Source: Girardia tigrina
Taxonomy: Eukaryota
NCBI GenBank assembly: GCA_001938485.1
Contig: MQRK01186684.1
Location: 35,560 to 98,696, forward strand
Direction: 5' to 3'
Length of the DNA: 63,137 bases
Shown here: piece after piece, positions 21,517 through 61,289 of the stretch
Position numbering within the stretch: position 1 is the stretch's first letter
How the letters are laid out: the number at the start of each line of letters is the position of its first letter
Program-made: the position numbers and the translations under genes
Notes under the pieces: generated by a model
Seen by the model: the letters and a program-made list of their open reading frames with translations, nothing else
What the model was told of the DNA's origin: nothing
Databases searched by the model: none

Positions 21517-21570
21517 GTATCGATTGGTTTTTGGATTAGACAAATCATTGACTGATCAATGTTAATCCAG

Positions 21571-21789
21571 GTTGATCAAGAAGGAAAAATAACTGCTGGT
21601 AGTCTTGGTCCACCTAATACCTCACATTTCCATGTATTGACGGACTCGGCGACCGGATTACAGTCACTCGGTAGTCAATCCACCGGTGTCAAAGCTCAAG
21701 GCAACAACAATTCGATCGATAAATTAACTATCCAATCAGCTCAAGGTAAAGATATTCAAGGACCGGATGGAGCAAATATCCAAACAAAG
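21571..21789 (+). CDS. SMARCC2: SMARCC exon 8 (GPPNTSHFHVLTD)
   Basis: GPP.TSHFHVL.D motif after SWIRM. Phase 0 at both ends. Confidence 0.9.
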
Positions 21790-22003
21790 GTGATTCTTAT
21801 TTTCGGACAAATATTATTACTTTTCTATTATATTTTATGATATAAATATTTTAAAACACAAGAAAAATCCATCATAATTTATTGCTATTAATTTCGATGG
21901 ATCAACCATGATCGTCACACTAAAGTAACAATGATATATTCGCACTTATATACCGAAGGGGTTTGCGTCAAATGACTGAGATTATTATTACAAATTTTAT
22001 TTA

Positions 22004-25723: not shown

Positions 25724-26915
25724 TTAATATGACAAAAAAGTTTTTTCCGTTACTCCTCTGTATTTCCAAATAAAACAAATATAAAACAACAAATATTGTG
25801 TATTTCTACACAACAGTATATTCACCATTACAACAAATAACATTTTCAGCATGTGTAAAAAGTTTATCAAATTCATGTGAAAGTTTTTCTCGTGAGAGAT
25901 TCCTCATAATATCACTGACCGCTTGTAAGACCTCTTCGTCACTTGTAAATGATGTTGTTCTTAGTGATCCTTTTAAAAATTTGAATAGCCATTTGTTCCA
26001 CTGATTTAAATCAGGCGAATATGGAGCTTGTTTGATCAATTCAACATGTTTTTTTGAAAAAACTCCGTGGTAAACTTGGATGAACGTGGTCGAGCATTAT
26101 CATTCTGCTAAAGAATTTCTCGCATATTCACTCGTCATCTGTCTTTACTAAACTTCGTAAGATTATTTTGAATGAATTCTGTATATCTTTCAGAATTGAT
26201 AGCCTCTCCAGATTTTGTTACATCGATGTGAAACTTACCATCAGCTGTGAATGCCAAAATAAGCATTGTTCTTCGTCCAAATTTTTTGTTTTGAACAGCA
26301 CGTGGTCGAGAATCATCTCCACTTGCCCATACTCGTAAGTCGGATCTCCATAATGTAGGGGAAAATGATATCCACATTTCATCAACTGTTATCCATCGTT
26401 TCATCAAGTATTCTTTCCCATTTTGTTGCACAAGTTGCAAAAAAATTCTTGAGGATTCAATACGTTGTCGTTTGTGATCATCAGTTAGTTGATAAGGCAC
26501 CCAGATGCTCAAAATCTTTTTCCTGTTCAAATTTTCATGGAGGATTGTCCTTATTGATTCTTTGTTGACATCAAGCATTTCACTTATGTGTTTTAAAGAC
26601 ACTCTTTCATCCTGCTCAATTATGTTCCTAACTTTTTCAATCAAATCATCAGTTGTTGCTGAAGGACGTCCACTTTGTGGGTGATCGTCCAACGATAGCC
26701 GCTTGCCTGAGGTAAAATCAGAGAACCAGTTTCTTATTGTGCGTTCCGTTGGGCAATCATCAGGGAAGGCATTGAACAACTTTATATAGGTTTCATCTGC
26801 AGTCGTTCCATTTTTCCACTCAACGTATGCATATAATCGATTGTTAGATTTTCAAAACTCCATTTTTACCGACAACCTTTTAAATCCAATATAAAAAGTG
26901 ATCATATGACACACA

Positions 26916-26950
<35 letters not shown>

Positions 26951-27072
26951 ATTGATTTTTTTGCCAAAAAATATTTATAAACATGAATTAACAAAAAAAC
27001 AGCATTAGAATGGTAATTTTCTTTCTTATTGAGAAGTGGAGAGTAACGAAAAAAACATTCTTGTCATGTTAA
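25724..27072 (-). mobile_element. Near full-length mariner transposon (inactivated)
   Basis: ~33-bp imperfect TIRs with TA TSD. ORFs 26135-26779 and 25806-26039 carry WVPY, TVDE, DNARP and YSPDL motifs, with stops/frameshifts. Confidence 0.92.
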
Positions 27073-27385
27073 TATATCAAATTTTCATAAAGTATTCTAT
27101 TTTTGATTTTCATTTAGTTTGAGGTATTTTAAACATGTTCTGTTTTTCGTGGTACTTTTTTAGTATTTTAAAATCTTCTGACATCCACTTATTAACTTGG
27201 GCTTGTTACGTAATTTAAAATTAACTCTGCATATTATCCTTTATATGGGATACAAAGGAAACTTAAAAAACGATAGAATTTATAAGTTTAATTTTTCTCC
27301 ACCTTTTTCACGAACGAAATAGATTTTTATGAAACTGTTCATTTATTTTTTATGAAACATATATAATCTATTTCTGTTTCGTTAG

Positions 27386-27808
27386 AATTTGGAAATCAAT
27401 AATGAAAGCTGTATGCCAAATTCGATCTCTGATTATTCTCTTCAAACTGATCAATACGTGAACGTGGCATCGAACCGATCAGATGCAAATGAAAACAGTT
27501 GCAGTAATATAGAACCACCTGTTGGATTGATGAGTCGATCTAAAGAATGGTCGGATCAGGAAACTTTATTGCTTCTGGAAGGTTTAGAAATGTACAAGGA
27601 TGATTGGAATAAAGTAGCCGAACATGTCGGCTCAAGAACACAAGAAGAATGTATCTTGTACTTCCTACGATTACCGATTGAAGATCCTTATTTGGAGGGT
27701 GATGCAGCCTTAATGGAAACTCTCTGTTATCAACCGATCCCATTCTCCAAATCAGGAAATCCAATTATGTCCACCGTTGCATTCCTGGCGTCTTGTGTCG
27801 ATCCAAGG
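27386..27808 (+). CDS. SMARCC2: SMARCC exon 9 (SANT/Myb domain)
   Basis: [50 protein letters not shown]...[23 protein letters not shown]. Confidence 0.97.
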
Positions 27809-27856
27809 GTGAAGCATTACATTATAAAACAATAGTTAATTATGTCTACATAACAG

Positions 27857-28039
27857 ATTGCTAGTGAGGCTGCCAAAGCAGCGTTAAATGAATTTAGCCG
27901 ATTAAAGGAAGAGGTTCCCGAGTATATGATTAAGGAGCACAAAGCAAAGATCACCACTGCAGTTGAGTCGGGTAAAAATATCGATCCAGATAAATTTGGT
28001 CTGGAAGATGTTGCTGGCCAAGAGGGGCAAGAGAAAATG
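27857..28039 (+). CDS. SMARCC2: SMARCC exon 10 (IASEAAKAALNEFSRLKEEVP)
   Basis: Continues the SWIRM-associated region. Acceptor acag at 27856, donor GT at 28040. Confidence 0.92.
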
Positions 28040-28085
28040 GTACTCGTTTAACAATAAGTACGCGTTTGTTATTTGAGTCATTCAG

Positions 28086-28191
28086 ACAAAAACAGTCGAC
28101 AATGATGAATCGAAAGAAGAATTAAAAACAACCGTGAAAGAAAATATCGATTCTTCTGCTTCAGTAAAATCAGAAACGGATAATAATAAAG
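28086..28191 (+). CDS. SMARCC2: SMARCC exon 11 (acidic linker)
   Basis: Phase-compatible ttcag acceptor and GTGAGC donor. Low-complexity E/K/D-rich linker. Confidence 0.78.
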
Positions 28192-28252
28192 GTGAGCGAT
28201 TTCTTAGCACCGTATATTATGTATGTAAAATATCCAAATCCAACAAAATCAG

Positions 28253-28584
28253 TCGAGACCGAATCTCACACAGAATCGGAAGGCACGGAAAGAATGGACT
28301 CAACCGAGAATCAGCAACCGATCACGGAAGAAAATGAAGTTAAAATCGAAAGCAAAGACGAAGAAATGTCCGAAAAACCGATAGTAAATGACGATGAATC
28401 GAAAGGATTCGATAAAGATTCCAATTCTAAGCGACTGGCGGAAGCGGCCAGTGTGGCACTCGCTGCCTCTGCGACTAAAGCTCGATATTTGGCTCAATCT
28501 GAAGAGAAGAAAATCAAAGGACTCGTAGCTCAATTGGTCGAGGCTCAATTAAAGAAAATGGAAGTGAAATTGAAACAGTTTCAA
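28253..28584 (+). CDS. SMARCC2: SMARCC exon 12 (coiled coil)
   Basis: [46 protein letters not shown] matches the SMARCC leucine-zipper region. Donor GTAAGA at 28585. Confidence 0.94.
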
Positions 28585-28819
28585 GTAAGATTTGTAAATT
28601 TATTTATTCACATTCATTATTGATTATTACAATTTTTTGAGTGAAAATCCTGTTAAGAAAAGCAATAATATACTCCGTATTTTTGATACTTAATTTCTTT
28701 CAGTCTTTTGAATAATATATAATTTATCTGAGTTATTCTGATTCAAATATAAAGTTTTAGGATCGATTATTTTGGTCCCGTAAAATCATTAGAATAAAAA
28801 AATCGATTTTTGAGTATAT

Positions 28820-30052
28820 TATACCGTAATGAAAGTAATTTAATTTTTTTCCTGATAGAGGATTTTATTGTATTTTTTAATCCCAACTTCACACTTAAGC
28901 CGCATAATCATTATATGTTTTGAGAGGTGATAAAGCAGGACTTGTGAGTGAAAAAGTTCAATTATTGCGTCGTGCCCTTTTAAATACGCAGAGCATTAAA
29001 CAGCATTTTCGTCATATTTTTACTTTTTTACTATAGAAAAGTTCAAATCAGAAAGAAATTAACCGATGTGAATGGAGAAGATTTGCTGACAATACGCCAA
29101 TGACAGAACTGGTTTGCAAAATTTCGATCCGGTAATTTTTATGTCGAAGATGCACCACGTTCTGGAAGGCCGTTTGAAGTTGATAAAAACACGATAAAGA
29201 CATTAGTTGATGCCAACGGGCGAAAAACAACACGTGAGATCTCTGAGAGGTTAAATTTATCGAATTCATCTATTTATGACCACCTGAAAGGCCTGGTTGA
29301 AACTCGAAGCTCGATATATGGGTTCCCCATGTCCTCACGGAGAGAAATTTGTGTTGTCGCTTTGAGGTCTGTGATTCACCCCTCAAACGTCACAAAAATG
29401 ATCCATTTTTAAAGTGCATCAATACTGGAGACGAAAAATGGGTCGTATTAAACTGTCAAACATAAGAGATCATGGAGCAGAAAAGATGAACCGACTCAAA
29501 GCATTTCGAACGCCAATATCCATCAAATAAAGGTGATGCTGTCTGTTTGATGGTATTTTGAAGGAGTCGTTTTTTGAGCTCGCAGGGAATAACGCAACGA
29601 TTAATTCGGAAGTGTACTGTCATTACCTGGACAAACTGAATGATACACTTAAGCTGAAAAGGCCAGAATTAATCAACAGAAAAAGTGTATTGTTCCACCA
29701 AGATAATGCGTGACTTCATACAAGTTTGGTCACTCGCCAAAAGACACTGCCACACACTCCATATTCTCCAGATCTGGCACATTCGGATTATTATTTGTTC
29801 CGGTCGTTGTAAAATTGTTTGGACGGTAAAACCTTTACTTCAAATTAAAGACGTCAAAAATCACCTGGATCAGTTTTTAGCAGCAAAGACTAAACATTTT
29901 ATGAGCGCGGAATCATGCTGCTACCAGAAAGATTTTGGCTAAATGCGTTGGATCACAATGGCCGATATATAATTTAATAAAATATTTATTCATTTTACGA
30001 AGATCGTCTTTCATTTTCACCAAAAAACGAAATTACTTTCCGAGCAACTCAA
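28820..30052 (+). mobile_element. Degraded mariner transposon
   Basis: WVPH, TGDEKW, HQDNA, PYSPDLAHSDY remnants. Right TIR ...GAAATTACTTTCCGAGCAACTCAA|TA. Left end degenerate. Confidence 0.85.
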
Positions 30053-30308
30053 TATTTATATATTTATTGTGGTTCTCGAACATTTTTGCGCTTTAAAATT
30101 GTCATAACGGCAGAATTTCTACATATTAGGCCTAAGAAAAGTAAAATCCAAATATTTATTTTGTCAAAATGAAAAAAATTAGTTCACTTTTTACTTTTGA
30201 AGTCGATATTGGACAGCCATTTTGCAAGGACTGCAGCCCGACGGGTGGTCTAAATAGATAATGTTTACAAAAACAAAAATAGTCATTGTACATAACATTT
30301 TTATTTTC

Positions 30309-31165
30309 GGTACCCCGACAAAAGCGCCCACCAACATAAGCACGAAATCACTTACTTTTTGAAATTTTTGTTTAAATTCTTAACATGACTAATTCTTAAA
30401 TAAATTAATAATTCATTTGTGTCGTAAAATTCAATCATTTAATTTTACTGAACTTTATCAAAATAAGATTATTGAGGAACGTATACAAAAATGTTATTGG
30501 CGTTTACATTTGTTCTTATTGATGAAGTTATTGTAGCTTTTGAAATGTTGACAGATATATGTCCAAATGAAATGGCTGAATTAATAAATTATTGGGAGGA
30601 TAATTATATTGGAAGAATGAGACGCAACTGTAAAGTAGTACCAATGTTTACATTAAACGTTAATGGTGATTTGCCGCGTACGAATAATTCAATTGAAGGT
30701 TGGCATAGATCATTTCAAAAAACCATAGAATGCCACTATAGTTCAATTTTAAAATAGTGGAACATTTTAAAAAAGAATAAAATCAAATGGAAATAGAATA
30801 TGAACGTCTTCAAGCCGGATTTCGACGACCGGAAGCTTCAAAAAACACATATTATAAGCCTATAAACGTATAAAAATATTAACAGAAAATTATAATCAAA
30901 ATGATATTATAAATTATCTAAAACGATTGTCATATAATCAGGAAATATAATCAAATGTGTTTTGTCGGGGCGCTCTTATTTATACATTCATTATATTGTT
31001 TAAATCCCAAAAATATGTCTTACAATTTTTTTTATAAAAATTAAAAAATTCCTATAATATTTATTAATAAAATATTTCCTTTAATTTTTAAATTCTTACA
31101 AAAATTTCAAAAAGTTAACGCTTTTGTCGTTAGCCGATTTTATCGGGGTGCTTTTGTCGGTCACC
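30309..31165 (+). mobile_element. Mutator-like (MULE) deletion derivative
   Basis: TIRs GGT..CCGACAAAAGC/GCTTTTGTCGGTCACC, 9-bp TSD (t/c)TTATTTTC, ORF with YWEDNYIG and RTNNSIEGWH. Confidence 0.88.
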
Positions 31166-31309
31166 CTTATTTTCACAGTAAGATCGGGTCATCTACAAAA
31201 AATTACTTATAAAAAATGACTCTGTTAATACTGTACCTCTCAAAAGTTTTAGAACGATGGTCAAATTTCGCATATTTGTATACAGAAAGGTTAATTGTAT
31301 TCAAAAATG

Positions 31310-32190
31310 AGCCATATATTGAAATAGCACCCCACAAAAACCGTGTAACAATGAAGAAATGATTTTCCAACATAATCCATGTAATTATTAGCGTGTATTG
31401 AATCCCTTAGCTTAAATAACAGAACTCGCTCTACGAGACATAGAATCGACATATCGTCGTATAAATGCAGGGGATAATAGGACCCACAGTCGATTTAACT
31501 CCTACCATATGCATCCTATCAAAGTGTTTCCATAGATAGAACTATTCAAGTATGTTCATATCTGCTCGATGGAATTTAAATCAGTTCTGCAGCTGCGCCT
31601 AGGAATGGTCCTGTGCCAAGATGCCAAAGGTCCAAACAAAGCTCCATTTATGCAAGACAATAAATGTTTTTAATTAGGACGATGATGAACGAACTAAGGA
31701 TTAAGAGTTGAAAGAAGTGAAAAATTACTCTCATCCGCAAGTATCGCCACTGATTTAATGTCCAATTTTTACGAGCTCTGCACCACAGAAGATGCTGTTT
31801 CCAGTTAAGGGATGTTATAGCAGGTTCCTTCATTGAGACACATCCCAAGAGGTTATGTTTAATTGACAAGGCGACGTTTGATGGTTGTTGTTGAAGCTGG
31901 AACACTCTACGAATGTCGTAGATCCCCTGCTGACTAGAATCTGGGACGTAATGAAAGACGAATCAAGGTGCGGTCATCTCATGTTGTGGTAATTCGTGGA
32001 CGCCCTCATCTGGGCCGATCTGCAACTGTCCCCGTCTCTTTTTCTTGACACTGTTATGAATTACACATTTGGACACATTGCACTGCTTTGAAAATTCTCC
32101 CATACTCTTTTATGGCAGCAATATCGGCTCTTACCTCTATTGATAAACGTGTGATTGGCATCGTAAGATAAGAAATAATGGTTAAATACA
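31310..32190 (-). mobile_element. Degraded Tc1-like transposon
   Basis: Minus strand ETGTVADRPR*GRPRITT and WCRARKNWTLNQW motifs. Confidence 0.75.
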
Positions 32191-32285
32191 CTCTATTGTG
32201 TAATTCCAAGAAAATCAACTAAAAGTAGTATGATAACGCCATTGGTAAAGTAAAACACTTTTAATAATCAGTCGGACTAAAATTG

Positions 32286-32408
32286 CCCGACTCCGACTTA
32301 CGACACCTTTTTAGGTTAATTTATAATATTTGTTATTATTTTGGTCGGAGTCCAGTTACACAACTCCGACTTACCGAAAAATCCTTAAACTCCGACTCCG
32401 CAGCCCTG
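32286..32408. mobile_element. hAT-type terminal fragment
   Basis: Repeated ACTCCGACT subterminal motifs ending CTCCGCAGCCCTG. Confidence 0.55.
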
Positions 32409-32718
32409 ATAATAATACATACTTACAGTATGATTTGCTGCACTACTTTATGTTTCAGACAGAAGAACTCAAATAAGATTTATGTTCAAATATAAGACAT
32501 TTTACCACCGTTTTAAAACCTTTGAGCGTTACCTGTAGGAATTTCGAAAGACTTTATTTGAATTTTCCGATAGTAAATTGTATTTCAAATAATTATATAA
32601 ATGAATTGACACAGCGACTTTTAAACCAAAGAATTACGAGCGGTTCTCATCGGAATTGCGGCTAATGATTCACTCAGCAGTCATGTGGAATCATTTGTGT
32701 GTTTGTATCCATTTAATT

Positions 32719-32839
32719 TAGTGGAACCTCTATAATGAAGTGGAAGGGACCAAAAATACTTCGTTATAAAGAGGTAAAATTGAGGCTAAAATTCTATGTT
32801 GGTACAAGAAAAATCCTTTGTTAAATAGAGGTTTGACTG
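32719..32839. mobile_element. Small Tigger-like MITE
   Basis: Imperfect TIRs TAGTGGAACCTCTAT / ATAGAGGTTTGACTG|TA. Confidence 0.55.
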
Positions 32840-32962
32840 TATATCTTTTTTATTTTGTGAAATGTTAATTCGGTGAATTATGTTAAACTAAATCACAATT
32901 GTTTCTGTCAATAATTTACATGTATTTGATAGACATTTTATCACGTTCCTTTTACTCTGTAG

Positions 32963-33850
32963 GAACTGGAAGCCATTATTGAAAGAGAATATGAAGTTCT
33001 TGAACAACAAAGACAACAATTACTATTAGACAGACAGGCCTTTCATATGGAATTATTGAAAACAGTTGAGTCTCGTGCTCGAGTTGTTGGTCACAATCAG
33101 TTTCACCCTATGACAAACAATAATAATAATCATCAAGCATCTTATCATAATATACCTCAACAGCATTTGCAAAGTCCATCTATTCAACAACAGCCGCAAC
33201 AACAAACCGGTGGCCCCATACCACAACAATACCCACAGAACCAAGTTATTCCGCCACAGCACCATCAGCAACAGCTACAACACCCGCCACATTTGCAACA
33301 ACAACAGCAACCACAACAACATACACAGCAACAACCACAACAACATACACAGCAACAACAACAGCTTCCACAGCACCAATCACAACATCAGCCTCAACAT
33401 CAACATCAAAGCTCTGCACCAATGCAATACGCACCGAACCCAATTCCTCAGCAGCACATGCCGAATTCGGTGCCGCCACATAATCAACAAGCAATGCCGC
33501 TACAACAGCAACATAACCCCCAAAATATCCCAATTCAGCACCAGGCGAACATAATGCCTCCTCAACAACAATCGAATATGCATCAACCGAATTTGTCTCA
33601 ACAGCATTCATCTCAACATGTCAATCAGCAATATCCCCAGGCCCAACAATTATATCAAAACGCTGCCATGGCGACGTCAAGAAAACCGACTGACAACATG
33701 TCTAATATGAGTTACACCGATCAACAGCAACAACAACAGCAGCAACATCAACAGGTTTCGAATGCTTCGATCCCGAATAATCCCCAGATGAATCCCATCC
33801 ATCATCTCTCGTCTCAACCGGAATCTGATGGAAACAGTGCCAGTGGTTGA
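32963..33850 (+). CDS. SMARCC2: SMARCC exon 13 (end of coiled coil + Q/H/P-rich tail)
   Basis: [37 protein letters not shown], then a Q-rich tail to TGA at 33848-33850. Confidence 0.94.
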
Positions 33851-34057: not shown

Positions 34058-35781
34058 TGTGAGGAATATTTTAAATTGTTTGAATGTGTAAATGTAGTGA
34101 TGCTGTATGTAGTGATGATTTGAGTATGTTGAATTTAGAATGGTGATTCTCCCACCCAGATGGAAATTGGTATTTTTTTTATTTAAATTTCAAGTGATTC
34201 GAACACAATTAAAATTAAGTTTAATATTTTTAGTAAAATTTAAATTACCCTAATTTCTTGTGTATAACCCGCGGGTTATACGAAAAAAAGTAAGTTTTCC
34301 CGAAAATTCGAGGATGCGGGTTATACATGAAATTTTTACTTTAATACATGATACTTTTATTCTAAAAATTATGCTTGAAAAACCGTGAAATACATGAAAT
34401 TTATTCAAAGCCATCAAAATCTTCGTCAGACTCAAAATTAAATGCTTCTAGAATATCGCTATACGGCGTAAGAATTGAAACTAATTCTTTATCATCACAA
34501 TTGTCGGAATCTGTATCGTCATAATCATTGTCACTATTATCTTCATTTGTTTGACTAGCATTATTAATGCTATAAACATGAAGCTTTGATCTCTTGAAGC
34601 CATTTTTTACACACTCAGGTGTGACTACATTTAGCTCCATCAGCAGGACAACATAAAACTACTGTAAAATTGGTTTTTTCTGATCCAGTTGTAGTTAATA
34701 TGATATCCTCTTTTCCTCTTACATCAACTATTTTCTTGTCAGGGATGTCCAAACTAACAGGTACTTCATCCATATTCCCAAATTGAGATAAGTCAACATT
34801 TTCTTTACGTTTAGAGACATAGTCTCGAAATAAAGTGACTTTTTCTTCCCAAACAGTGGGTAGTGGCTGACCAACAGACGTAACTGCACGCACAGACAAT
34901 TGATTTCTTTTCATAAAACGATAGCACCAATTGATTCCGCCTCTAAAGCCGTCAATACCTCTTTCGTTTGCTATTTTGCGTGCCATCAATCGAATATCAA
35001 CTGTTGAAACTTTCCTTTTCTCTTCGCGTGTGGTTATAACCAATTGTTTTAATTCTGACTCTAATTCTGGCCAATATGGAAGACTTCCTCCACGGGCACT
35101 TTTTCCTCGCGGCATTACATTTAAGACATTCTTATTTTTTCTCCAATCGCGGACAATACTTTCATCCACAGAATATTCACGACTCGCACTTCTGTTGCCA
35201 TTTTCTTCAGCATATTTGACTACTTTTAATTTAAATTCGGTGGTATAAGACTTACGTTTCGGTGGCATTTTNNNNNNNNNNNAAATCCATAATATTTATA
35301 ATATTAAAACAACATTTTCAAAACTATTAGATTTTATTTAAATTATTATTACAATGTAATTATATTAAAAGTACATTAATAGGTAGAAATTAAACTGACT
35401 TTATTTAAGTGGGGGTTATACAATGGGTGCGGGTTATACGTAAAAAATTATACTTTTCATAGAAATTTTTGATATTTTTAATATGCGGGTTATATGCAAG
35501 AAATTAGGGTAAATGCATTTTTAATAATTTGATGACATTTTTATTATTTTAAGATTTATTGGAAAATGGTAAAAATTATTATTTTTTTAATTAATATTTT
35601 TAGAGGCTAAATATTTAAAAAAATGAATTAGAAAAATTGTTCGAATAATCATGATTAAAAACAGAAATAAGAAAATCAATTAGAAGGATGACAAACGATG
35701 ACAGACTTTCTGAGAGTTGTAATGATTCTAAATGTGATTGTAATAAACATTCAAACGAGACTTGTTTAAATGTTCTTAATA
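34058..35781 (+). mobile_element. Solo LTR (TGTGAGGAA family), TSD ATATC, split by a pogo insertion
   Basis: Both halves align to the 9511-10010 LTR. Flanked by ATATC. Confidence 0.88.
34248..35509 (-). mobile_element. pogo-family transposon (Brinker-type DBD + CENP-B HTH), internally deleted
   Basis: TIRs CCCTAATTTCTTG/CAAGAAATTAGGG with TA TSD. ORF 34615-35268 (SYTTEFKLKVVKYAEENGNRSA; GWC.RFMKR-like; NMDEVP) jumps to an acidic C-terminus. Confidence 0.92.
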
Positions 35782-36547: not shown

Positions 36548-37700
36548 TTGTTGAACATCAAACAATATTTCGATTTCCAACCGATTTTCATGCTACAAAA
36601 ACTCCGAGAAAACCCACCATCCGCCAACGATTTATCGAAATTCATACAAATATCCACAATCGAGGGAATAAATTTCGATCTTTCACTTTCAGGCACCCTA
36701 AGACCAATAATTAACGAGACCTTGCGAAAAACAGCCTTCGACCATATCCACAACCTCATCATCCCGGGAATACCAACACATACAAACTGTTACACACACG
36801 CGTGATTTGGCCAGTGATGCGGACTGATGTCCATAATTGGGTCGAAAAATGTCTACCGTGCCAAAAATACAAGATAAACCGGAAGTTAAAACCACCACTT
36901 TACCACTATCCCTCATCAACCCGATTCGACACAGTCCACATCGACATCATCGGACCTCTACCATCAAATCACGGTTACCAATACCTTTTAACGATGATCG
37001 ATAGAGCCACCAAATGGTCCGAAGCCGTGCCACTCCGCAATATCGACGCTGATATGATCAGCAAAAAGTACATATCCACGTGGGTCTGTCCTTTTGGCTC
37101 CCCAAAACATCTAATCTCCGACCAAGGGAGACAATTTGAGGTAGGTTTATTCAAAGACATAATCAAACGTTTTGGCACCACTCATATCCAAAGCTCAGCA
37201 TACCATCCCCAAGCCAACGGTGCAATCGAAAGTTTCCATCGCACTCTCAAAACATCAATGCGAATCCTCGCCGAAAAGACCAACAGTTGGATCGATGTGT
37301 TACCATTTGTACTTTTAGCTTGGTGCAACACACCTTGTTCTTACACCAACACTTCACCCACCCAGGCTGTATTTGGTCATTCCACACGTTTCATCACCGA
37401 ACTCATCGATCAAAACGCCCCACCGTCAGAGTCAGACATTCAAAAGCAAGACTCTATTTCGAATCCATAGACGACGATTATTATTGCAAGGCGCATAAAA
37501 ATTTCAAGCCGCACCAGCGAAATCACTATACATCGCAAATATCTTTGGTTAAATAACCAAAACACTTCCGGTCTAGCTCCATCATTTACAGGCCCTTTCA
37601 AAATCGTCCAACTTTTTTCCCATAACACCAAAATTCTAAAAGACAAATAGCTTTTCACCTGTCCAACACCAAACCAGCATTTTTCATAGATGATAACGGA
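36548..37700 (+). mobile_element. Gypsy integrase pseudogene
   Basis: CLPCQKYK, HIDIIGPLP, LISDQGRQF, AYHPQANGAIESFHRTLK and GPF motifs with frameshifts. A possible LTR starts at TG 37959. Confidence 0.9.
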
Positions 37701-38011
37701 TCCATCGAAAAATCAAGCACAAACACTCCATCATCACAAAACGACAACTTGAGCATTCTAACAGACATTCTGGCCACACCGATAAAAACACCTGCCAAAA
37801 TAACCTACACTTTCCCAACACAACCAAACAACACCGACACACACCACACAACAATCAAACAACGAAAACACAGAACACATAAACCCCACAATCAACGATA
37901 CCACAACATTTGAACAAACACAACACAGTAAATACACCAGGATACACTACCCAAAAGGTGTAACGCGTTTGTCTTCTCGATAACCCACCTTTACCGCTTT
38001 TCTTTACAGTA

Positions 38012-47394: not shown

Positions 47395-50109
47395 ACAAAT
47401 ATTTGTATTTTTAATGTTAAATAATTATTTTTTAGTTGTTTTGAACAAAATCGATGTGAATAGTAGAAGAAACTTCTTCTATGTACATATTTTTGAAATG
47501 TGTTGATGTATTCAAAACTCCAATTTTCTTTAGATCAGAATTAAAAAATTGTTATTTGTGTGTGACGAAATAAGTAATATAATACGGCATTCTCATTCCG
47601 TTTTCCTCTCATTTGTTATAATGAAAAGAATATTTTCATGGTAAAATCAATGATAGTTGGAACACACGGCTGTTTAGGTCATATCCATGATACTTTGTGG
47701 TAGACGCTTCGAGTTGCAAAAGGCGCAATTGACCCGGACATGGCTGTCAGTTGATCCTTGCGATATTCCTGCAAACTGCGTTCTATGACCACCGACGACA
47801 CGACTGAGTCCTGAGACTGTTTGATCATCATCAGGCGTATGGGCACAGTGAGGCCACGTGGCAGAGAAAACTGTGAACGAAAGTACCGAGTGGTGTCGAG
47901 CCGTTATACGATCATGTAGTCCGGTGTGTGGATGACGAGCACCGAAGGCCGGAATTCAGGGCTTAATTTAGTTTCTATGTTAATTCGTGCTTCTCTTCTT
48001 TCTCATAAAAAATAACTATCTTTCTTTTTCTTTCTGAAAAAAAATTTAGCTATCTTTATAAATATACCAATATGTAATTTTAGTGGATGTTAATGTATTC
48101 ATTGTTTGCAATACGCCTGTTTTACATTTTTTCAATAGATGTAAAAATTCTATTCTAAAGAAATTATCAAATATTTTACTGACATATTGAAAAGAATACT
48201 TTTTAGTTTTAATTTATGAAGACTTATATAAAAACAACAGTGTTAAAAAATAATATTAAATTTTATAAATATAAATAAGAATTCATTTGTTGGTTGCATA
48301 TATTGTTGTCATAGTGAGGTGTCTTGTTTTGGTAGTTGTAGGAATCTCATTTATTTTAGAAGTAAAGTTAATGGAAATGACTGCTGCATTAAAAAGGATC
48401 TTTACAATTCATCTGCAAAATGCATTTATTTTCTCTGACTTTCCATTCTTTTCAAATAACAGATACATTTATTCTTTTTATTGTCATTAATTGTCCTAAA
48501 TTTAAATGTATGGTATATAATATATTAAATAAATGTTCATTAGTTCTAATCCTAATAAGATTTTTGCAAAACACGAAAAGTATAGATGTAAAAAATACAA
48601 ATATTTGTATTTTTAATGTATAATAATTATTTTTAGTTGTTTTAAACAAAATCGATTTGAATTGTCGGAACACCTTCATTTATGCACATATTTGTGAAAA
48701 TGTGTTGATTTATTCCAAACTCAAATTTTCTTTAGATCAGATTTTATGGGTTTTACCGATGAACCCTTTCTCCATGCTTGTGCATTTATTTTATCTTCTG
48801 TTTACACTATCTGTAAGATGTATCCTACGAGAACCAAAGATAATACAATTTCTTTATTAAATCTGATATAGAAAACATTTCGGTACTGTAATTGACTCCC
48901 CTTTCATGGACTAAATGTGCAGCAATCATTCAACGATAATTTAAAAATTTATTAAAAGAAAAAATAATATCTAACAAATAAATATTCTTTATAAAGAAAA
49001 TAGTAAATCAAAAAAAAATTTATATCCATTCTTTATCCAGACAGAACTCTACTTTATTCTATTCCATAAACATCTACTTCCGATAATAGTCTTTAAGGAC
49101 CGTTACCTTTTGGGGTTTATTTGATATTTCATCTGATCCGAAAGTCATGAAGTCATTATGTCGAATTAAAAATGCACTATGCACAAATTAAAAGATGTAT
49201 AATCCATATTTTAGTGCTTGATCATAAAATCTTTATTTTAATGATCTTATATTTTTAACCAATACAATTTTAATTAATGACTTATTTTTAATTTATAGCT
49301 ATTTTGTGACTGTATAAGAAGCATACGCTTTATATGCACATGGAGCTGGTGATAAAGTAGAATTTTAAAATGCGCCACAAAACATCGGTGTATTTGTAAT
49401 TTGAATTTAATTTTTATGTTAATGCAATTATTTAACTTGATTTAGAAAAAATGATCTAATGTTTACAACTTCATTTATTTTTTAAAATTTGATTTCATTG
49501 ACAAATGTTCAAATCTTTTGGCATCACTAAATAATCAAAATTTCACTTTTTTATTAATTATGTACACATTTTTTAAGATTATTTTGGTTTACAAATATTA
49601 TGAAATACTATTAAATGTAATTAATATAATAAATTAATTAATATAATTAATATAATAATAATATATATAAATTAATATAATATAATTAATATCAAATAAT
49701 TGCAGTTCTCTCGCGCGGTTATGATTGTAGTGACACAAATTTTAATCAGTATTTATAAATATTAAATATATATACATAAAATCCTATATTTCTTATTTAT
49801 AATTACAAATTTTCTCAGGCAAATTCTCAACCAAAATCAAATGATTTTTTTATATATTGGTCTGCGAAAATAAATTCTCAAAAACTTGAAAATAGACTTT
49901 CTTTCAAATTGACAATAACAATATCCATAATTATTCGTTTTGTTAATCCAAACTTGTTTAAATAATATGCATGTACATCACACTTTTAAATTTGTAAATA
50001 AAGATTTTCTTTTGAATTTGTGAATCTAATTTCGTTATATGGTTTCGGCAAATCGATAATCGATTTTCATCGATTAAATTAATACATTAATAATAAACTG
50101 TCGACAATC

Positions 50110-50781
50110 ATGAAAAGCGATGAGACCAATTCGCTAAACAAGTGTCCAACTGATAATAATAAAATTCAAAATCGAATGATTCGATATACATTTTGTTCAT
50201 TTGATAATATTTTGGTAAATCAGTCGAGATTGATCTCCCGAAAGATCGCATCACCGGGATACACGCGATACTCGTTCATCATCATCCCTGAGATCCTCAA
50301 TAAATCGATCGATGAGAATCTCGACACTATTTTATCAGACTCAACATACGATAATTTCATTGAAATATCAAAATACATTAATGAATTCGATTCGGATTTG
50401 AGTTCGATTCTCGACAAAATAATCACCACCAAATTCGATGATTTAACGTTGGATAATTCGATTGAGAGGGCGATTTGCATGATCGATTTGAAAGTGAAAT
50501 ATTTACGATTGAAATATTCGGCTAAAGAGATGCCCAAGTCGATTCGCCCCACGATGTTCGAGGAGCGACCCGTACTGAAGATCGAGTCGATCAAACCGGC
50601 GCGATGCTTCCACCATGAGTCCGACACGATCGAAGAGACGCGCCACTGTCTGCTCAGCCTGCTCGACGAGTACGGGTCACTGGAGTTCGTCGTCAACATT
50701 GTCGACACGCTCACGATCCTCGTTGCACGCGCACAGCCAAATCGACGTGCTCCTCCACCAGAAGACCTTACCCGGTGTTAG
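50110..50781 (+). CDS. Hypothetical intronless protein (223 aa)
   Basis: Intact ATG-TAG ORF in very AT-rich DNA. Strong third-position G/C bias in this frame at 50530-50720 supports coding. Confidence 0.65.
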   Translation: MKSDETNSLNKCPTDNNKIQNRMIRYTFCSFDNILVNQSRLISRKIASPGYTRYSFIIIPEILNKSIDENLDTILSDSTYDNFIEISKYINEFDSDLSSILDKIITTKFDDLTLDNSIERAICMIDLKVKYLRLKYSAKEMPKSIRPTMFEERPVLKIESIKPARCFHHESDTIEETRHCLLSLLDEYGSLEFVVNIVDTLTILVARAQPNRRAPPPEDLTRC

Positions 50782-53179
50782 TCGATCCCGGCAGACGACA
50801 AAAATGATATATGGTTATTAATAAGCAATGAGACAAATAATAGTATCCAATAAGATCAGTAATTAAGTATTTATAAATTTAAATCTGGACTAAGTTAAAC
50901 TTATGCATTTTTAATATTCAAACAAAACGCCTTTTCGCGTAACTGGAATATGCCAATATTGTCCAATAATAAAATGTCAATCAACTAGAAGATGCATATG
51001 TTTTAACATTATAAGAAAATAAAGGTTGAAAATCTAGTCTAACTAAATATTATCAATATAAGTGGATTCAAATCTTAACTCAATGAAACACTTAAAAAAT
51101 TAGAAGACAAATGACGATCCAATCTCAAACACTTATGAATTATCGGTCAAAGGATATACAATGGAATATATAAATAGGTTACTAGGTACCCAGAGCAGTC
51201 AAATTAAAAAGACATTTGAGCGTATTTTAGCAGAAAGCATACAGTCAATAAATATTTATTTTTACAGTTTTCATGTGCAATGAATTGAGAATAGTCTAAT
51301 AATGTTCTACTAAAAACAGCCAGCTCACTTATCATTAACTAGTAAATCTAAAAATTAAATTTTTTATATCCATTCGTTATGCAGACAAAACTCTACTTTG
51401 CCAAGAAAGTTTTTAAAATTTAAAAAATTTTAATTATAAAAACACATTAATAATTAATATAAACTACTTATAATTTTTAAGTAGATATATTGTTATTAAT
51501 ATTGTTCGGGAACTCCGAATTTTCCGTTTTTTCCCATTTTGGGATCTTAAAAAGTTTTTTTACGATCGAATTTTTATATAATCATTTATTGTCATCGAGA
51601 ATGACTAAGTGTGCAAAGTTTGAAGAAAATCGACGTGTAAAAAGCATGCAAAAACAGGTTTCTAAATTCCATGGATATATATATATATATATATAGAAAG
51701 TAAGCTAATATAAAGAATTGAAAAAAGCTTGCAAAAAATGCTGCACAGATTAAAATAGTTAGGTAAAAGATAAAGTGGATCTATCTAATTTTGTATATTT
51801 TGTGGACTGGCTGCTTTCTTCATAACTACGCTCATTTATTTTCTTGTAATTACTTTAACAATTTCCATAATTTATAAAATGATTTTTATTCAAAAAATTT
51901 ATTTTTAGTTACTTCTCAAGGTGTTTTATAAGGGAATACCAAGTTAATATGTAATACTAACATTTCAAATTTTAGAGCCCCTCCCACGTGTATCGAAGTC
52001 TCATAAAAATTTGAACCCCCACCGCCACTAAAGTCCACAAAGAATTTTTTTAAAAATTAAGCAGTTTTTTATTTAAATAAAATTCATAATGAAATTTTTC
52101 CTGCACTTTATTCGACTTCATTCCATGGCAATGAGAAATGTATTTTCGAACTTAAATTCAGGATTGGTGCATCTGTTTTCTCTGAGTGGAGTTATCTTGG
52201 TTGTTCAGTAATTACCCTATCAAATAGCTCTTCCTTGGGTTATACTCTTAGGTTTTAAAACAATTTTTCTTCTTCATTTTGCTGTGTTCCTTAAATAGGA
52301 ACAACCGCACAAAATATAATTTATATTCCTCAAAGCATCTATCTTTATCCCTTATAGTAATACTTTGACAATAAGTGTCATAAGTCAATTTCTCTTTTTT
52401 GAAAGTGTGAGTGTTTAGTCCAAATGTTTAAATCGAAACTTTTCATACACTTGCACATAACTCAAATAGGAAATCAAAGGATTGTATTTCAAAAAAATTA
52501 GTGCTAGCAAGAATTGGTCTAGAAATGTTTCGATAATTTTTTCACGAGGTATTGAGCAGCAATTTCAGTCTTGACTTTTTAAAATTTTTAGAGTTTATTG
52601 TATAACTGAAAATCGCTGCTAGTGCCTCGACAGCAGACGCAAAGTCTTTACCTCTAAATCTTCATCGATTGTTTTCCAATTGAAATCAAGATCTGTTCCT
52701 TTAGCTTTATGGGGAAGCACCAAATTCGTAAGGTGCCTCGATAAGAGGACCATACGTTCCTCCATATGTTAAATGCACTCCTGTGAGAAGCATTTGTAGC
52801 AATCACGAGAGTTTCAAAAGAGTATTCGATAAAATAATGTATGGCTACACCAATTACTTTCTAATATCTCGGATTCTCGTTAGGTTCACAATCAGTGACT
52901 GGTTTCGGAAGATTTTCACGACTTTTCAAACTCATGACATTCATCTAGTACAAAAAATCTCGCGAAGTCTCGAACAAGAGATAGCCCTGTTAATATGGTG
53001 TTTTCTATGAATGAACAGCAGCAAACGTAGACTCCGTTTGAGTCACTACATTTCACTAAATTGATAGCATCAATTAATAGCATCAACACACTCACACATT
53101 CAAACAATGTAAAATATTGCTCACAGTTTAGAAATACACTTTTGAAATATTGTTAAAGTTAATAAATTTTTATTTAATC

Positions 53180-54139
53180 TGTCACGACCCTATCGAGCAT
53201 AAACATTTTTAAAAGCTCTTGAGCCCCCAGTGGCTATTAAGGGTCAGCCACAACCCATCGTTGATTTTGATATTTACTTGTATTCATTTACATACTGGGT
53301 CGGACGTCTCTTCTCGCTCGACATTTGCCTGGCAGTGCCGAGTTTGAAGGACCTTCGGGTTCTGATAAAGACGGGATGGGCTATGGGCCACCTAGCTGAG
53401 CGCCGCTAGGGGATGATTTTAAACTATGCTTATTATCCCTACTATGTTCTCATAAAATACAGAGTTAGTAGGTAGTTCTGGGAATCACTTTAAAACCTCA
53501 AGATGTCGACCTCAATATTGAAATATTTTATAGTTTGGTAGCAAGAATATTACTCAAAGATTTTCACCCCATCTTCATGTAACTTCATATCCCTTTATGG
53601 TAAAATAGATTAGTTCTATTTGGATTAATTCCATATCATGCGCTTTCTGAAGCGATTCTCAAGGAGTTACTAAACCGTAAATCGCTCAGTTACTAAGTGA
53701 TAATCCAATTAAATCCTAAACTACATTTACTTATTTCATATCGATAAATTTCTCTTAAACCTTGATTTCCCCAAATTAATTCCCGCTTACCAAATTGGTG
53801 ATTTAAAAATAAAACGATTTCTTTTAAAATACTAATAAAACTGTTTATGAAAATTAAATTCGGAATTTTTCAGTAAAACCAGTTAAATTCGATTATAAAT
53901 AGTAAACGTATAAAGTTAAGTTAAAAGTAAATAAGCGTATAAAAATAAATATAAAGGAATAAATAAACGTCATAAAAAAGGAAACGTTTGTTTAAATTAT
54001 CGGAATTCGACCTTCAACTATAATTGACTATGTGTAGTGAAGCCGTTATGATAAACTTTTAGCACAAGCCTGAATGTACCATGTATTTGAAATTCAGTTG
54101 ATTGTTGAGCAAAGGTTCTTAGCTCGCAGTGGTTACACA
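53180..54139 (+). mobile_element. Solo LTR (TGTCACGACCC family), TSD TAATC
   Basis: TG...CA termini flanked by TAATC. TATAAATA near 53894 and AATAAA near 53943-53962 orient it on +. Confidence 0.85.
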
Positions 54140-54497
54140 TAATCAGTCTATTATGATATTGAGATCAAAAATCATGGATCAAGATCGACTCATTTTCATT
54201 AGCAACCATTCTTTCAGAAAGACAAACTTCAGCCGAAGTTCTGAAATATATATGTTCTCCATTCGAAAATTCTCTTCGACTGATCTTTCTATAGAATTCT
54301 TGACTGACAGGTTAGCAATATTCGCAGAAAAACTGATTTAAACCAAAATAAAACATTTTAATAATGAATCACATTTTTATAAAGCTAATCAAATCAGTTA
54401 AATTAATTAATTTTAATTAAATCATCAAACGTAACTTTAAAAAGGCTCTTTCAATTTTAGAATGCAAAATGTTTTTTGAAAATAAGAATTATACATA

Positions 54498-56850
<2,353 letters not shown>

Positions 56851-56852
56851 TA

Positions 56853-57137
56853 TTTAAATTAAACTGATCTTCATCAACAGTTAATAGAGCACTTCTCACA
56901 ATATCAGTTGGAGACATTCCTTCGTATTCATGCACTTTAGATTTGATTAAATCTTTTGCAATTAATGATTTAATTTTTCCAGGATTTAGCAAGTAAATAT
57001 TTCCATGATTCGTCGAAACCTTAAATGTATACCCAAAAAGTATACCAATATTTACCCATTCCACTACACAACAGTTTATTTTGACACCAGTATTGCTTAT
57101 TCCGGTGAAAATTATATGCCTTTCCATCATAGCATAC
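56853..57137 (-). pseudogene. MULE-like transposase fragment
   Basis: NH...NPGKIKSLIAKDLIKSK...SPTDIVR resembles the post-FLYWCH region of MULE transposases. Weak evidence. Confidence 0.4.
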
Positions 57138-57420
57138 TGTCACGACCCTCTCGAGCACAAACATTTTTGAAAGCTGTTGAGCCCCCAGTGGCTATTAAGG
57201 GTCAGCCACAACCCAACATCTGTTTTAAATTCGCTTGTATACATCTACATAATGGGTCGGACGTCTCTTCTCGCTCGACATCTCCCTGGCAGTGCCGAGT
57301 TTGAAGGACCTACGGGTTCTGATGAAGACGGGATGGGCTATGGGCCACCCACCTAGCAAAGCGTCGCTCGGGGATGATAAAGTTATTATCTTTACTGCAT
57401 CTCTGTTCAATATGTAATAC
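57138..57420 (+). mobile_element. Second TGTCACGACCC-type LTR start (right end unresolved)
   Basis: First ~240 nt closely match 53180-53417. Downstream sequence diverges and no TSD was found. Confidence 0.75.
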
Positions 57421-57979
57421 AGGGAAACTTGTTGCACTGTTATGTATGAATGCGAACTTACTGCACGGTTCTGTATTGTCTATGTCCCGTGAAACTTATG
57501 GCAATGGGTGTTGTATTTTAGTAACTTGTGGCAATGTATATGTCCATCTGTAGTAATACGGCATGGCTGAAAGAAATTATCCAAAGAGTACCAACTTTAT
57601 TGTATCATGAAAAATTATTTTTTGCATGTTAATTCATCAAATATTATCGCAACATTAGAGAGTCGACAGTCAACAGCAGCTTCGCTTAACTCTATTTTAT
57701 TCGTATTATAACTTTATTCATATCGATTTGATTGGTAATAGTCTACTCGTGTTGATATCCTTTGTATTCACAAGATTAATACATATCAGTGTCAACTTAA
57801 TCTAATTGTCTCGACGGACTTCCTCTAATTTAGTTGTAAATCATTTCTTTAAAATTTGCCTTATAAATTTTACTTTATCTGGTTTATTTTCATATCGAAA
57901 TCAAAATAGTACACATTTAACAAATAATAAAACATTCAGAGACATTCGTTGTAAATATTCATTTTCAATCGATCACTTA

Positions 57980-60539
57980 ATCTATAAAATTATTACCGTC
58001 ATTTTTATTATTATGTCATTTTCTTCGAAATTTTTAATAACATCATCCAATTTGACCTCAAAGTGTTTTGGTTTCCGATAAGGTTTTACTAGTATTGGAT
58101 CCCCGTGTGTTTCTATTCTGTGTTTTGTCAATGATGTTTTCCCAATATCCCACTTATCAGCCATGAATACTGATTTATAATTTGCTAGAATCTTNNNNNN
58201 NNNNNNNNNNNNNNNNNNNNNNNNNNNNNNNNNNNNNNNNNNNNNNNNNNNNNNNNNNNATGGGTTGTCTCTAATCACCAATATTTCTCCACCTCGAGGT
58301 ATCTGTCTTTTCAGTTTTATTCCGAATTTATCCAAGAAATCTATACCTGCGATCATTTCGGGGTCTAGTTCTTTAACCACTTAAAATTCTATTATCTTTT
58401 GTGTTCCCTCAATAGCCACATTTAATTGAACGATTCCATAATTGATCAGTTCTGAATCATTTGCGCAATGGATACGTTTTTTCGTTCATCTTATTTTAAT
58501 ATCTTTCATGTTTTTAATTATCTCCGCTTTAATTGCATTTACTCTTGCTCCAGTGTCCAAAAGGCAATGAACTTTTCTATCTTTCACGTAAAAATCCATA
58601 CATGGACGTCCTTTCAGTTCTTTATAATTTATCTTAAACTTTGATATCTTCAATATTTCCGTTTTACCATTTAGTTTCTTATCCTCTTGAGTTGTCATAC
58701 TATTGCACTGTTCTCGATTTACAATATCTTCGCATTCAAGTTCGCACATCTCTTGAGGAATATTTCCATCCGTAAAATCAAACATACAATCACACACACA
58801 TTCATACATACAATCAAACATATANNNNNNNNNNNNNNNNNNNNNNNNNNNNNNNNNNNNNNNNNNNNNNNNNNAAGCACACTGATCACCTCTCCTTGTG
58901 ATCGTGCGTCCTCGTTTCCCTGTTCGTCTCCGGAACTTCTTTTACCTCTAGAATAATCTCTTGCTGTATTCTCTTCTCTTCTATCAGACATTTACGATCT
59001 TCTGTCCATTTCATCATCCCTGTCGTCTAACTCCGTCAAGTGTTGTTTCTTATTCATATATGCCGGTCGTTATCTATATCTCTGATTAGAATAATCTCTC
59101 CTGTCATTCCAACGATTTCTATTATTGTCCCATTTCCGTTGATCACGTTCTTTAAACCTATTTGGGTTTTCATAACATTGTGTTCGTAGATGTCCTCTTC
59201 TTTGACAGTGACTACACTTAACGTTCGGACATTCTCTTCTAACATGACTTTCCTCATGACATGCCCAACAAATTATTTTTCTGACTTTATAGTTTCGACT
59301 TGTACCGTCTCTCTTTACATCGTCGTTCCGTAGTTTTGGTGTTCTTCTTTTATTCTCCACCGTTTTTCAATGGTTTTCTTTCCTTGTGTTATATGCTGCA
59401 ATCGGTGAATTTCTTTTCTTTTTCCCGTATTCATACATCCTCATTTGTATGTTTTCGATTTCCTCTGCCTTTGTTACACCTCGAATNNNNNNNNNNNNNN
59501 NNNNNNNNNNNNNNNNNNNNNNNNNNNNNNNNNNNNTTTTCTTTTTCCCGTATTCATACATCCTCATTTGTATGTTTTCGATTTCCTCTGCCTTTGTTAC
59601 ACCTCGAATCGCTATCTCTTGATCGATGTTATCATCATCAATCATATTAGCATAGGCCAAGTTTGATAGTTCTTTTTTACCCAACTTTTTCTCTACTAAT
59701 TTTTCGATTATCTCATCTGCTTTGCGGAACGCAAGTGACGGGTCACCGCAACCTACTCTTAACTCTATGAGATCTTTCATCAAATCCAAAATTGANNNNN
59801 NNNNNNNNNNNNNNNNNNNNNNNNNNNNNNNNNNNNNNNNNNNNNAAATGCTGCTCGCATTTTCTCTTCGCAAGTACTCCCTGGGGCCTTCTCGTATCTC
59901 AGAATCGCATCTGGAGTCAAGTAGGGTGTTACCAGTAGGATTTTTCTCTCCTCTGATAATCCCAGAATCTTTGAATATCTGTTAAAACTTATCAGGAATT
60001 CTTCTAACTTGTGCTCGGATCCATCGAATGTTTCTGGACCTTTGATGTTCGGAGTCACGTGATGTGAAGTCGCCATGTTAAGAGAACTCACACATTTGAC
60101 AGAACATTTATTACATTCACAATTTTTATCATCTTTATGATGATTAACAGAAATGCTTTAACTTAGATCCATCAATCAATTTTCAATATCTCCCATTATA
60201 ATCTGAACTATACTTGATAAGATTATTTTATTTAAAAATATTTACTTTAAATTTGATTGGCCGAAATAAAATATTTTTATAGTCATTTTTAAACATTAAT
60301 TTGATTTTAATTATTTAAAAATTTACAAAAATAAAATCATTAAAATTATTTAAAAGCTGCAATAATAAAAACTAAAAATTTGAATATTAAATCTAAATTT
60401 AAATAAATTAGTTTCAGATTATAAAAAATTAGATATTGATAATCCATCTGGTTAGGAGAGGCACAATTCCAAATCAACATACAACATTTGAACATGCAAA
60501 AACTACACAAAAATATCCACAAACCAAATATTCCTCACA
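57980..60539 (-). mobile_element. Gypsy LTR retrotransposon 5' half: LTR (60076-60539), PBS, gag with two CCHC knuckles, protease, start of RT; 3'-truncated
   Basis: LTR ends ..TTAACA then TGGCGAC (PBS). PETFDG gag start, CWACHEESHVRREC and CSHCQRRGHLRTQC, LLDTGA protease, KPYRKP. Confidence 0.92.
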
Positions 60540-61289
60540 ATGACTATAAAAACTTAACCGTCGAAAATAAATCAGAGTTATTAAATTCTAAATATCATTA
60601 AAATCTTTGAAATCATTAAAATTCATTTATGCATCAAAACCATGAAACTCGAAAAATTAAAAGTAAACTAATATTTGTTTTATCACATCAATTTTATTTT
60701 GCCGCGGCGCTGAGAAAACAAACTCTAAGATGTTTTCTTAGGAAAATTATATTCTCCGGTATGGACACACTCGCGGTCCCATTTCCTCAAGCAACGACCC
60801 GACACGGTTGTCGTTTATAAATACTGACATGGGTACCGACCTTATGTCGTTAATTATGGGGACCCTCTGGTCTCTTTCACCTTCTGACGATGCGCTCGAC
60901 GGTAATTCAAGCCTTGGCATTATTAAATGAAGGACGGCGACGGTGACGACGACGGTGCTTATTCTTTTTGTAGTAGCTAAAAGGTTAAAACCTATCTATT
61001 AATTATATCTTTATAGAAAACAGATTATCATTTCATATATTTATTAAATCAATATTAAAACCTTTCACAACTAAAATAATTACATGCAATAATCACCCAG
61101 AAATTGTACGGAGGAAGTTGATTCAAATTGATTTACGGGTAATCAGATGTATTCTTCTCTTCTATCGATACGATTGTCGGTTAGTTTGGGTTGGTCTTGT
61201 TTGACGCGAATGTAGCAGTTATTATGTCAAAATCTCGCAATAATGTTCACTTTAGTTTATAAATTATTGTCTGATTTTTTTGTTCGCCT

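Follow-up and report, generated by a model that had tools for sequence, protein, structure and literature searches.

Why do some 240 nt at the head of two repeats in Girardia tigrina stay so similar when the DNA that follows does not? A sequence-only reading of the window (the whole stretch of DNA analysed, 63,137 nt) had described two closely matching stretches at the start of two otherwise diverged LTRs, and had proposed that they encode a selected multibranch RNA. The match itself is confirmed. Copy A (53180–53417) and copy B (57138–57378) of this block are 88.5% identical over 243 alignment columns (blastn, E 2e-84), and blastn found no third copy within the window. The block has a GC content of 49–52%, compared with 31% for the window, and its 3′ terminus is GAT. 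A single AT-rich segment, 53258–53295, holds 11 of the 23 substitutions between A and B together with a 1-nt indel.

53180–53417, + strand: conserved block, copy A (49% GC against 31% in the window; blastn match to copy B)
57138–57378, + strand: conserved block, copy B (UACG loop at 57311–57314; sharp family edges at 57138 and 57378)
53258–53295, + strand: hypervariable AT-rich segment (24% GC) enclosed by ACCCA/TGGGT (A/B differences; matching family loose ends in copy B)

The ends of the longer repeat that begins with copy A were compared with the terminal motifs in Table 3 of PMC3601003 (Sushi/rGmr1). The 5′ end, TGTCACG, fits TGTYANR with 0 mismatches, and GGTTACA at 54131–54137 has one mismatch to CNTNACA. 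Copy A runs to GTGGTTACACA at 54139; the next five bases, TAATC, repeat those just before 53180, and no other CA+TAATC site lies in the 6 kb downstream. The att-like 3′ motif with the best fit ends at 54137, 2 nt inside the target duplication. A CA end with a target duplication is found at 829 of the 4956 TG starts in the window (17%) and is weak evidence by itself; an att-like end in addition occurs at 181 of the 4956. Between its two ends, copy A has a likely TATA box followed by AATAAA hexamers on the same strand.

53175–53179, + strand: target-site duplication TAATC, left copy (from the sequence)
54140–54144, + strand: target-site duplication TAATC, right copy (from the sequence)
53180–54139 (end at 54137 or 54139), + strand: copy A, likely solo LTR, 960 bp, TG...CA (CA+TAATC, att-like ends)
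53894–53902, + strand: TATAAATAG, likely TATA box (offset 715 from the LTR start; putative function)
53944–53967, + strand: three AATAAA hexamers, likely poly(A) signal (offsets 765–783; putative function)
57379–58002, + strand: likely rest of the LTR of copy B, a different U3 variant (repeat cores, TATAAA, AATAAA, bridging contigs)
58003–60076, − strand: Ty3/gypsy remnant with gag including a zinc knuckle, protease and the start of RT (stops 624 bp from the block)
54498–56850, + strand: Tigger/pogo-type DNA transposon between the copies, unrelated (Pfam DDE_1, HTH_Tnp_Tc5 and CENP-B_N; inverted ends with TA flanks)

Copy B has a matching arrangement, with TATAAA at 57862 (offset 725) and AATAAA at 57926 (offset 789); at 2786 random starts such an arrangement turned up 29 times. 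The GC profiles of A and B run in parallel, and both dip to 0.18–0.19 at offset 700–800. When the first 70 nt past the block are aligned with the block as anchor, 4 of 300 random segments score as well as the A/B pair; an unanchored comparison downstream of the block was not significant (111/200 and 83/150 shuffles scored as well). Only the 5′ end of copy B could be located: no target duplication and no 3′ end were found, and the copy is cut off at ~58003, where the gypsy remnant begins. Neither a PPT nor a PBS was found beside either copy. Behind the block, copy B also contains four degenerate repeat cores on the + strand (57426, 57455, 57493 and 57523), 29–38 nt apart, and contigs of three runs skip 66 nt here (57447–57514), which suggests copy-number variation of an enhancer-like unit at 57426–57534.

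Of the features typical of Ty3/gypsy-type solo LTRs, those seen here are att-like TG...CA ends (copy A), TATA followed by AATAAA on the same strand, and a dispersed family with a sharp 5′ edge at which the upstream flanks vary among family contigs. The + strand placement at the start of U3 made by the sequence-only reading is supported by the TG...CA ends, the suggestive target duplication and the order of TATA and AATAAA, and on these sequence features we consider it likely that the block opens the U3 of a + strand LTR.

For a survey of the family, contigs from four of the 12 public runs found were aligned to 56870–58190; the counts below come from 22 of 547 loose-end entries, 40 of 203 variant entries and 26 of 6342 contig entries. 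Summed contig depth, which is not a copy number, is 0.58–1.07 million over the block bins in runs X1 and X2, against 61–1,683 in the upstream bins (56870–57094) and 47–10,766 in the downstream bins (57410–57994). This contrast shows that the block is a very abundant repeat. Run X5 gave no contig cover of the block. Among the loose ends listed, 35 and 38 contigs end at 57138 and 35 and 33 at 57378. Internal loose ends at 57214/57216 and 57252, again among those listed, bracket ACCCA (57211–57215) and TGGGT (57253–57257); 35 of the listed contigs in X2 diverge 5′ of 57179, adjoining the outer stem of the fold discussed below, and depth dips to ~7–13 thousand at 57226–57242. The AT-rich loop and the 5′ hairpin region are therefore variable across the family, while the helix-bearing parts do not break up.

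Past the 3′ edge, the number of listed contigs that differ from copy B is 12–15 at 57380 and 22–23 at 57420, and nine differences listed for X3 within 57380–57404 each occur in one contig of equal depth. One X3 contig (record 23) spans 57305–57506 and so bridges the edge of the block, as does an X1 contig (record 2); some family contigs thus continue from the block into the downstream DNA of copy B with much higher divergence. Truncation of copy B at 57378 is ruled out as the cause of the drop in similarity, since contigs of the family also break there and some of them run on into the DNA behind copy B. The drop occurs where the sequence-only reading had placed it.

Both edges of the block are sharp, and the loose ends there are heterogeneous (agreement 0.42–0.43 upstream and 0.49–0.50 downstream). 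This would also fit a block that is itself a complete non-autonomous element of ~240 bp, either MITE-like or a solo LTR of TRIM size, followed in each copy by unrelated insertion-site DNA or another repeat. An imperfect terminal inverted repeat and a 6/7 flank match around the block of copy A (TTTAATC/TTTAAAC) fit this explanation, as does the frequency of a CA end with a target duplication at random TG starts given above. The block, however, ends in GAT and not CA, many distinct contigs cross its 3′ edge into the DNA downstream of copy B, and TATA/AATAAA offsets and GC profiles agree between A and B. The block also lacks a pair of Pol III A/B boxes and a credible tRNA. The block as a whole element was set aside after the CA end of copy A, the duplication and TATA/AATAAA had been found, and we keep it as a rather unlikely rival to the U3 start of a longer LTR.

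Several other elements lie in the window. Over the protease region, the pol of the gypsy remnant at 58003–60076 is 95% identical to a public protein; it breaks off at residue 269 of 1050. No loci related to it were found in viral contigs. The start of its RT, at 57995–58190 of the window, has a summed depth of 0.3–1.5 million in X1 and X2, as high as that of the block, and both are also covered in X3, a possible RNA run; the gypsy group to which the remnant belongs is therefore very abundant too. We considered the block as the 3′ LTR of this minus-strand remnant and rejected it, given the absence of a PPT or PBS beside the copies, the + strand promoter order and the end of the remnant at residue 269 of 1050. 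In a second gypsy-type remnant at 36715–37990 (+ strand), an integrase (Pfam Integrase_H2C2 and rve) is followed by a purine-rich stretch and TGTAACG, likely the start of a 3′ LTR that is cut by a (TA)n run; this start differs from that of the block. A 460-bp AT-rich repeat forms an inverted pair (60076–60541 and 6210–6639, 87% identical), one copy of which lies just 5′ of where the gypsy gag begins. A SMARCC/SWI3-like gene was recognised by its exons at 20618–33850 (+ strand), the last of which is long and rich in Q/H/P, with several mariner- and pogo-type transposase remnants in or near it (26138–26851, 29104–29409 and 34618–35295). The exons look flatworm-like, which would suit a planarian host. 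A frame of 232 codons at 50083–50778 (+ strand) has a weak match to the N-terminal of Integrator subunit 7 (E 7e-6, below the cut-off); it is highly diverged and had no Atlas match. Joins at repeats call for some caution, as the window contains 13 N runs, and an identical 73-bp duplication that flanks an N run at 59414–59609 is probably an assembly artefact.

Conservation at the start of U3 might reflect coding. In HIV, nef is a reading frame that runs into U3, and copy A has one uninterrupted + strand frame of 68 codons (53203–53406). The A/B substitutions are nevertheless spread 8/7/8 over the codon positions, the frame is broken in copy B, and no homologous protein of near or greater length was found. 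A search among 1.84 billion representatives returned two matches, proteins of ~700 aa with 5–6 matching stretches at 28–37% identity, which we take as chance. We regard a conserved reading frame as highly improbable.

This leads to the predicted RNA fold. The helices named by the sequence-only reading lie within one core:

53222–53382, + strand: predicted multibranch core (seven helix pairs)
53222–53226 and 53378–53382, + strand: predicted outer stem AGCCC/GGGCT (pair probability 0.03 in full copy A)
53230–53235 and 53246–53251, + strand: predicted helix GTGGCT/AGCCAC (pair probability 0.72 in full copy A)
53253–53257 and 53296–53300, + strand: predicted helix ACCCA/TGGGT (pair probability 0.70 in full copy A)
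53305–53309 and 53369–53373, + strand: predicted helix CGTCT/AGACG (pair probability 0.00 in full copy A)
53310–53313 and 53346–53349, + strand: predicted helix CTTC/GAAG (pair probability 0.98 in full copy A)
53316–53320 and 53339–53343, + strand: predicted helix GCTCG/CGAGT (pair probability 0.99 in full copy A)
53350–53361, + strand: predicted hairpin GACC-TTCG-GGTT (pair probability 0.02 in full copy A)

Each of the seven helix pairs occurs identically in A and B, with 0 differences at 69 paired positions; the other 174 columns contain 30 A/B differences, a few of which are edge artefacts. The claim that the differences cluster in loops holds with these helices (Fisher p 4e-5), but the test is circular, as the helices had been picked as identical. 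With structures predicted from one copy alone, the same comparison of paired and unpaired positions gave p 0.38 (A, + strand), 0.21 (B, + strand), 0.21 (B, − strand) and 0.0004 (A, − strand); the one significant result of the four is on the strand opposite to that of the reading, and on the + strand the clustering is not significant. The folding energies are weak as well. Whole-copy z-scores are −0.66 (A) and +1.17 (B) on the + strand and −1.77 (A) and −0.73 (B) on the − strand, and those of the core on the + strand −1.82 (A; 6/150 shuffles) and +0.83 (B). Besides the core of A, the best + strand value is −1.96 for the 5′ part of A (5/150 shuffles), with nothing significant in B, and over all 16 tests the scores span −2.1 to +1.2.

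The proposed fold lies 5.8 and 7.3 kcal/mol above the minimum energy in the two copies, and the two-sequence consensus fold is a different structure. In the copy B ensemble the CTTC/GAAG and GCTCG/CGAGT arm has a probability of ~0.5, GTGGCT/AGCCAC of 0.52 and the UNCG hairpin of 0.48. With the two full sequences aligned there are zero compensatory changes in any helix; no covariation can be counted because there are two full copies only, with 0 changes in the 69 paired positions. A selected multibranch fold is plausible as a model, but it comes with no covariation, weak z-scores and an energy 6–7 kcal/mol above the minimum, and we give selected RNA structure in the block a little less than even credence. 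Within the model, the arm formed by CTTC/GAAG and GCTCG/CGAGT, together with GTGGCT/AGCCAC and ACCCA/TGGGT, are the best-supported helices.

The finer motifs of the sequence-only reading fared less well. The swap between two UNCG tetraloops is there in the letters, with TTCG at 53354 and TACG at 57311, but the hairpin is seldom predicted to form in A, because GTC/GAC lengthens the long arm instead. As CTTC/GAAG and GGACC/GGTTC both use G53349, the stem of the UNCG hairpin would be GACC/GGTT only, if both form. The loop AGGGTC is complementary to GACCCT at the LTR tip as claimed, but the proposed pseudoknot is at chance level, since a complement of at least 6 bp to the loop arises in 20% of 5000 shuffles. 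Hairpin and pseudoknot are the least supported parts of the model and carry little weight. Of the two letters in the CTGAT(G/A)A junction, G stands in copy B and A in copy A, and CUGAUGA is a minority state in the family contigs: at 57324, the G of this junction in copy B, the letter of copy A accounts for 94–99% of summed depth in X1–X3. We also observed that GGGTCGGAC, at 53297–53306 and 57254–57263 (+ strand), is an imperfect inverted copy of the 5′ tip of the LTR, GTCACGACCC. This long-range pairing competes with the proposed fold and is the one picked by the two-copy consensus fold.

The weak folding scores, competing folds and zero covariation would equally be expected if the block marks the same LTR start and is kept by constraint on the DNA or primary sequence (GC-rich factor sites, integration or priming context, with the helices as incidental palindromes), or is shared through swapping of the distal U3 enhancer by template switching. 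AT-rich low-complexity DNA mutates fast in any case, and the distal U3 of copy B with its four degenerate repeat cores resembles an enhancer array. Against this, an att site needs only ~8–15 bp and not 240 (PMC3601003), and the variable segments stop at the edges of predicted helices. Enhancer swapping alone fails to explain why many contigs break at one base. Since no covariation can be counted, we take this alternative to be nearly as likely as an RNA signal, although we would sooner doubt than accept it.

The reading that we favour, tentatively and with slightly less than even confidence, is that the block probably forms the U3 start of gypsy-type LTRs and that its RNA probably folds into a cis-acting signal within the 3′ untranslated part of the transcript. 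Throughout a large family the adjoining U3 is much less conserved than the block, whose variable segments end at helix edges. Transcription would start near offset 745 of the 5′ LTR, just past the TATA box; as such a start lies downstream of the block, RNA of the block would come from the 3′ LTR alone, on the + strand and ~550–750 nt ahead of the poly(A) site. By analogy with known elements, Gag or host factors might bind this RNA and so bring about its export, its packaging or an end-to-end contact at the start of reverse transcription. All subfamilies would need this signal, and the enhancer part of U3 behind it would be free to turn over. A bolder and more doubtful version of this model is an undescribed 240-nt multibranch RNA that combines a tRNA-like four-way junction with a variable insert and became fixed where U3 begins throughout a flatworm gypsy-LTR radiation, as a shared export or packaging signal, while the promoter was repeatedly replaced. 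The family is so abundant that a single genome assembly would yield a deep alignment, which makes the structure directly testable. Should covariation fail there, the locus would be an ordinary repeat, though still a clear example of how LTRs evolve by modules.

A GC-rich multibranch fold in an LTR, with a possible UNCG cap, could also belong to a self-cleaving ribozyme of an undescribed class, in an element like the plant LTR retrozymes, which carry hammerheads in LTRs of ~350 bp (PMC7761336). The sequence-only reading had seen no fit to known ribozymes by eye, and our searches agree. The block matched nothing in Rfam at the thresholds used, up to E 10, and for twister, twister-sister, pistol, hatchet and hairpin there was no Rfam covariance match either in the window at the gathering score or in the block at E 10. 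For a hammerhead, there is no GAAA after stem II and no NUH (a G stands at the would-be cleavage site), and CUGAUGA is found only in copy B. An HDV-like nested double pseudoknot, P1-P2-P3-P1.1-P4 with a J4/2 C, searched with a loose descriptor of our own design, matched once in A and three times in B, with 0 matches common to both and 0 on the − strand. With the putative promoter behind the block, a cut in the block, ahead of R and the poly(A) signal, would presumably remove R and the tail. Self-cleavage is unlikely on these grounds, and a new ribozyme class in a retrozyme-like element is very improbable.

Other small-RNA affinities gave no better result. ARAGORN found no tRNA in the block at 80% score and one poor prediction, in copy B only, at 70%. 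Pol III A/B boxes with proper spacing were not found in the block, and Rfam gave no tRNA or 5S match. Likenesses noted by eye to U3 snoRNA box B, RNase MRP CR-V, pistol P1, 5S rRNA boxes and Helitron/Helentron ends were rejected, as there were no partner motifs and no Rfam match. Scans with exact patterns of the block found nothing in viral contigs or prokaryote genomes, and blastn found nothing in plasmids. One metagenome scan gave 7 pattern matches, all in GC-rich loci without similarity past the pattern. A description of such a block was not found in the open-licence PMC/bioRxiv literature; Repbase or Dfam may catalogue the family.

How does the block compare with known systems? Literature drawn on besides the papers cited in the text comprised the available parts of PMC2664473, PMC11410931 and bioRxiv 10.1101/137141. 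As far as described in the consulted part of PMC3601003, animal Metaviridae (Ty3/gypsy) LTRs share several features with copy A. Those of Sushi/rGmr1 have TG...CA ends, TGTCACG fits their TGTYANR/TGTNANR motif and the 3′ GGTTACA is one mismatch from CNTNACA/CGTNACA. A TATA-like box followed by AATAAA is a further shared feature, and a solo copy with a 5-bp duplication would be another (PMC3601003). Conservation in Metaviridae LTRs lies at the tips, TATA and AATAAA, and U3 is normally the least conserved part of the LTR (PMC3601003), whereas the highest conservation seen here is in the first 240 bp of U3; a long block kept at the U3 start across many subfamilies reverses the usual variability of U3. 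Also unlike these LTRs, the TATA/R region is unalignable between copies A and B (PMC3601003).

The Helenus, Ajax and Cassandra TRIMs likewise have a conserved, structured-looking LTR segment, which in TRIMs is derived from small RNAs, and the four-way junction predicted for the block has a cloverleaf-like spacing by eye (PMC10886601). Unlike the Helenus TRIMs, the block lacks an A/B box pair and a tRNA or 5S match, and its LTR is ~960 bp long compared with 120–320 bp (PMC10886601). None of six block motifs was found in one supplement file of that paper, and identity with Helenus/TRIMp3 was rejected, as the block contains no Pol III boxes and no tRNA/5S segment. Plant LTR retrozymes resemble the block in having structured RNA within a gypsy-like LTR, and differ in their hammerhead core, which the block lacks, in a 4-bp instead of a 5-bp duplication and in a shorter LTR, whereas that of the block is longer with its own TATA/AATAAA (PMC7761336). 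ta-TRIM and lennie of taeniid cestodes are, like copy A, abundant solo LTRs of a flatworm host; they mostly have 4-bp duplications, and the available part of their description, by which they are set apart here, reports no conserved U3 structure (PMC4558846).

The likeliest working model for the block, by analogy, is found in Ty3 and Ty1, whose RNAs carry cis-acting signals at the 3′ end, namely the part of the bipartite PBS in the Ty3 3′-UTR and Ty1 CYC3 (PMC4974528; PMC11381356). These signals are short pairing sites (the 3′ PBS segments of Ty3 are 11–24 nt), whereas the block would be a multibranch structure of 240 nt (PMC4974528; PMC11381356). Export and packaging signals are imprecisely defined even for Ty1 and Ty3 (PMC4974528). 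We therefore treat a Ty3/Ty1-like role in the 3′-UTR as a lead. If the RNA signal proposed here is real, the 240-nt element would be a retrotransposon counterpart of the retroviral CTE/RRE, placed inside the LTR.
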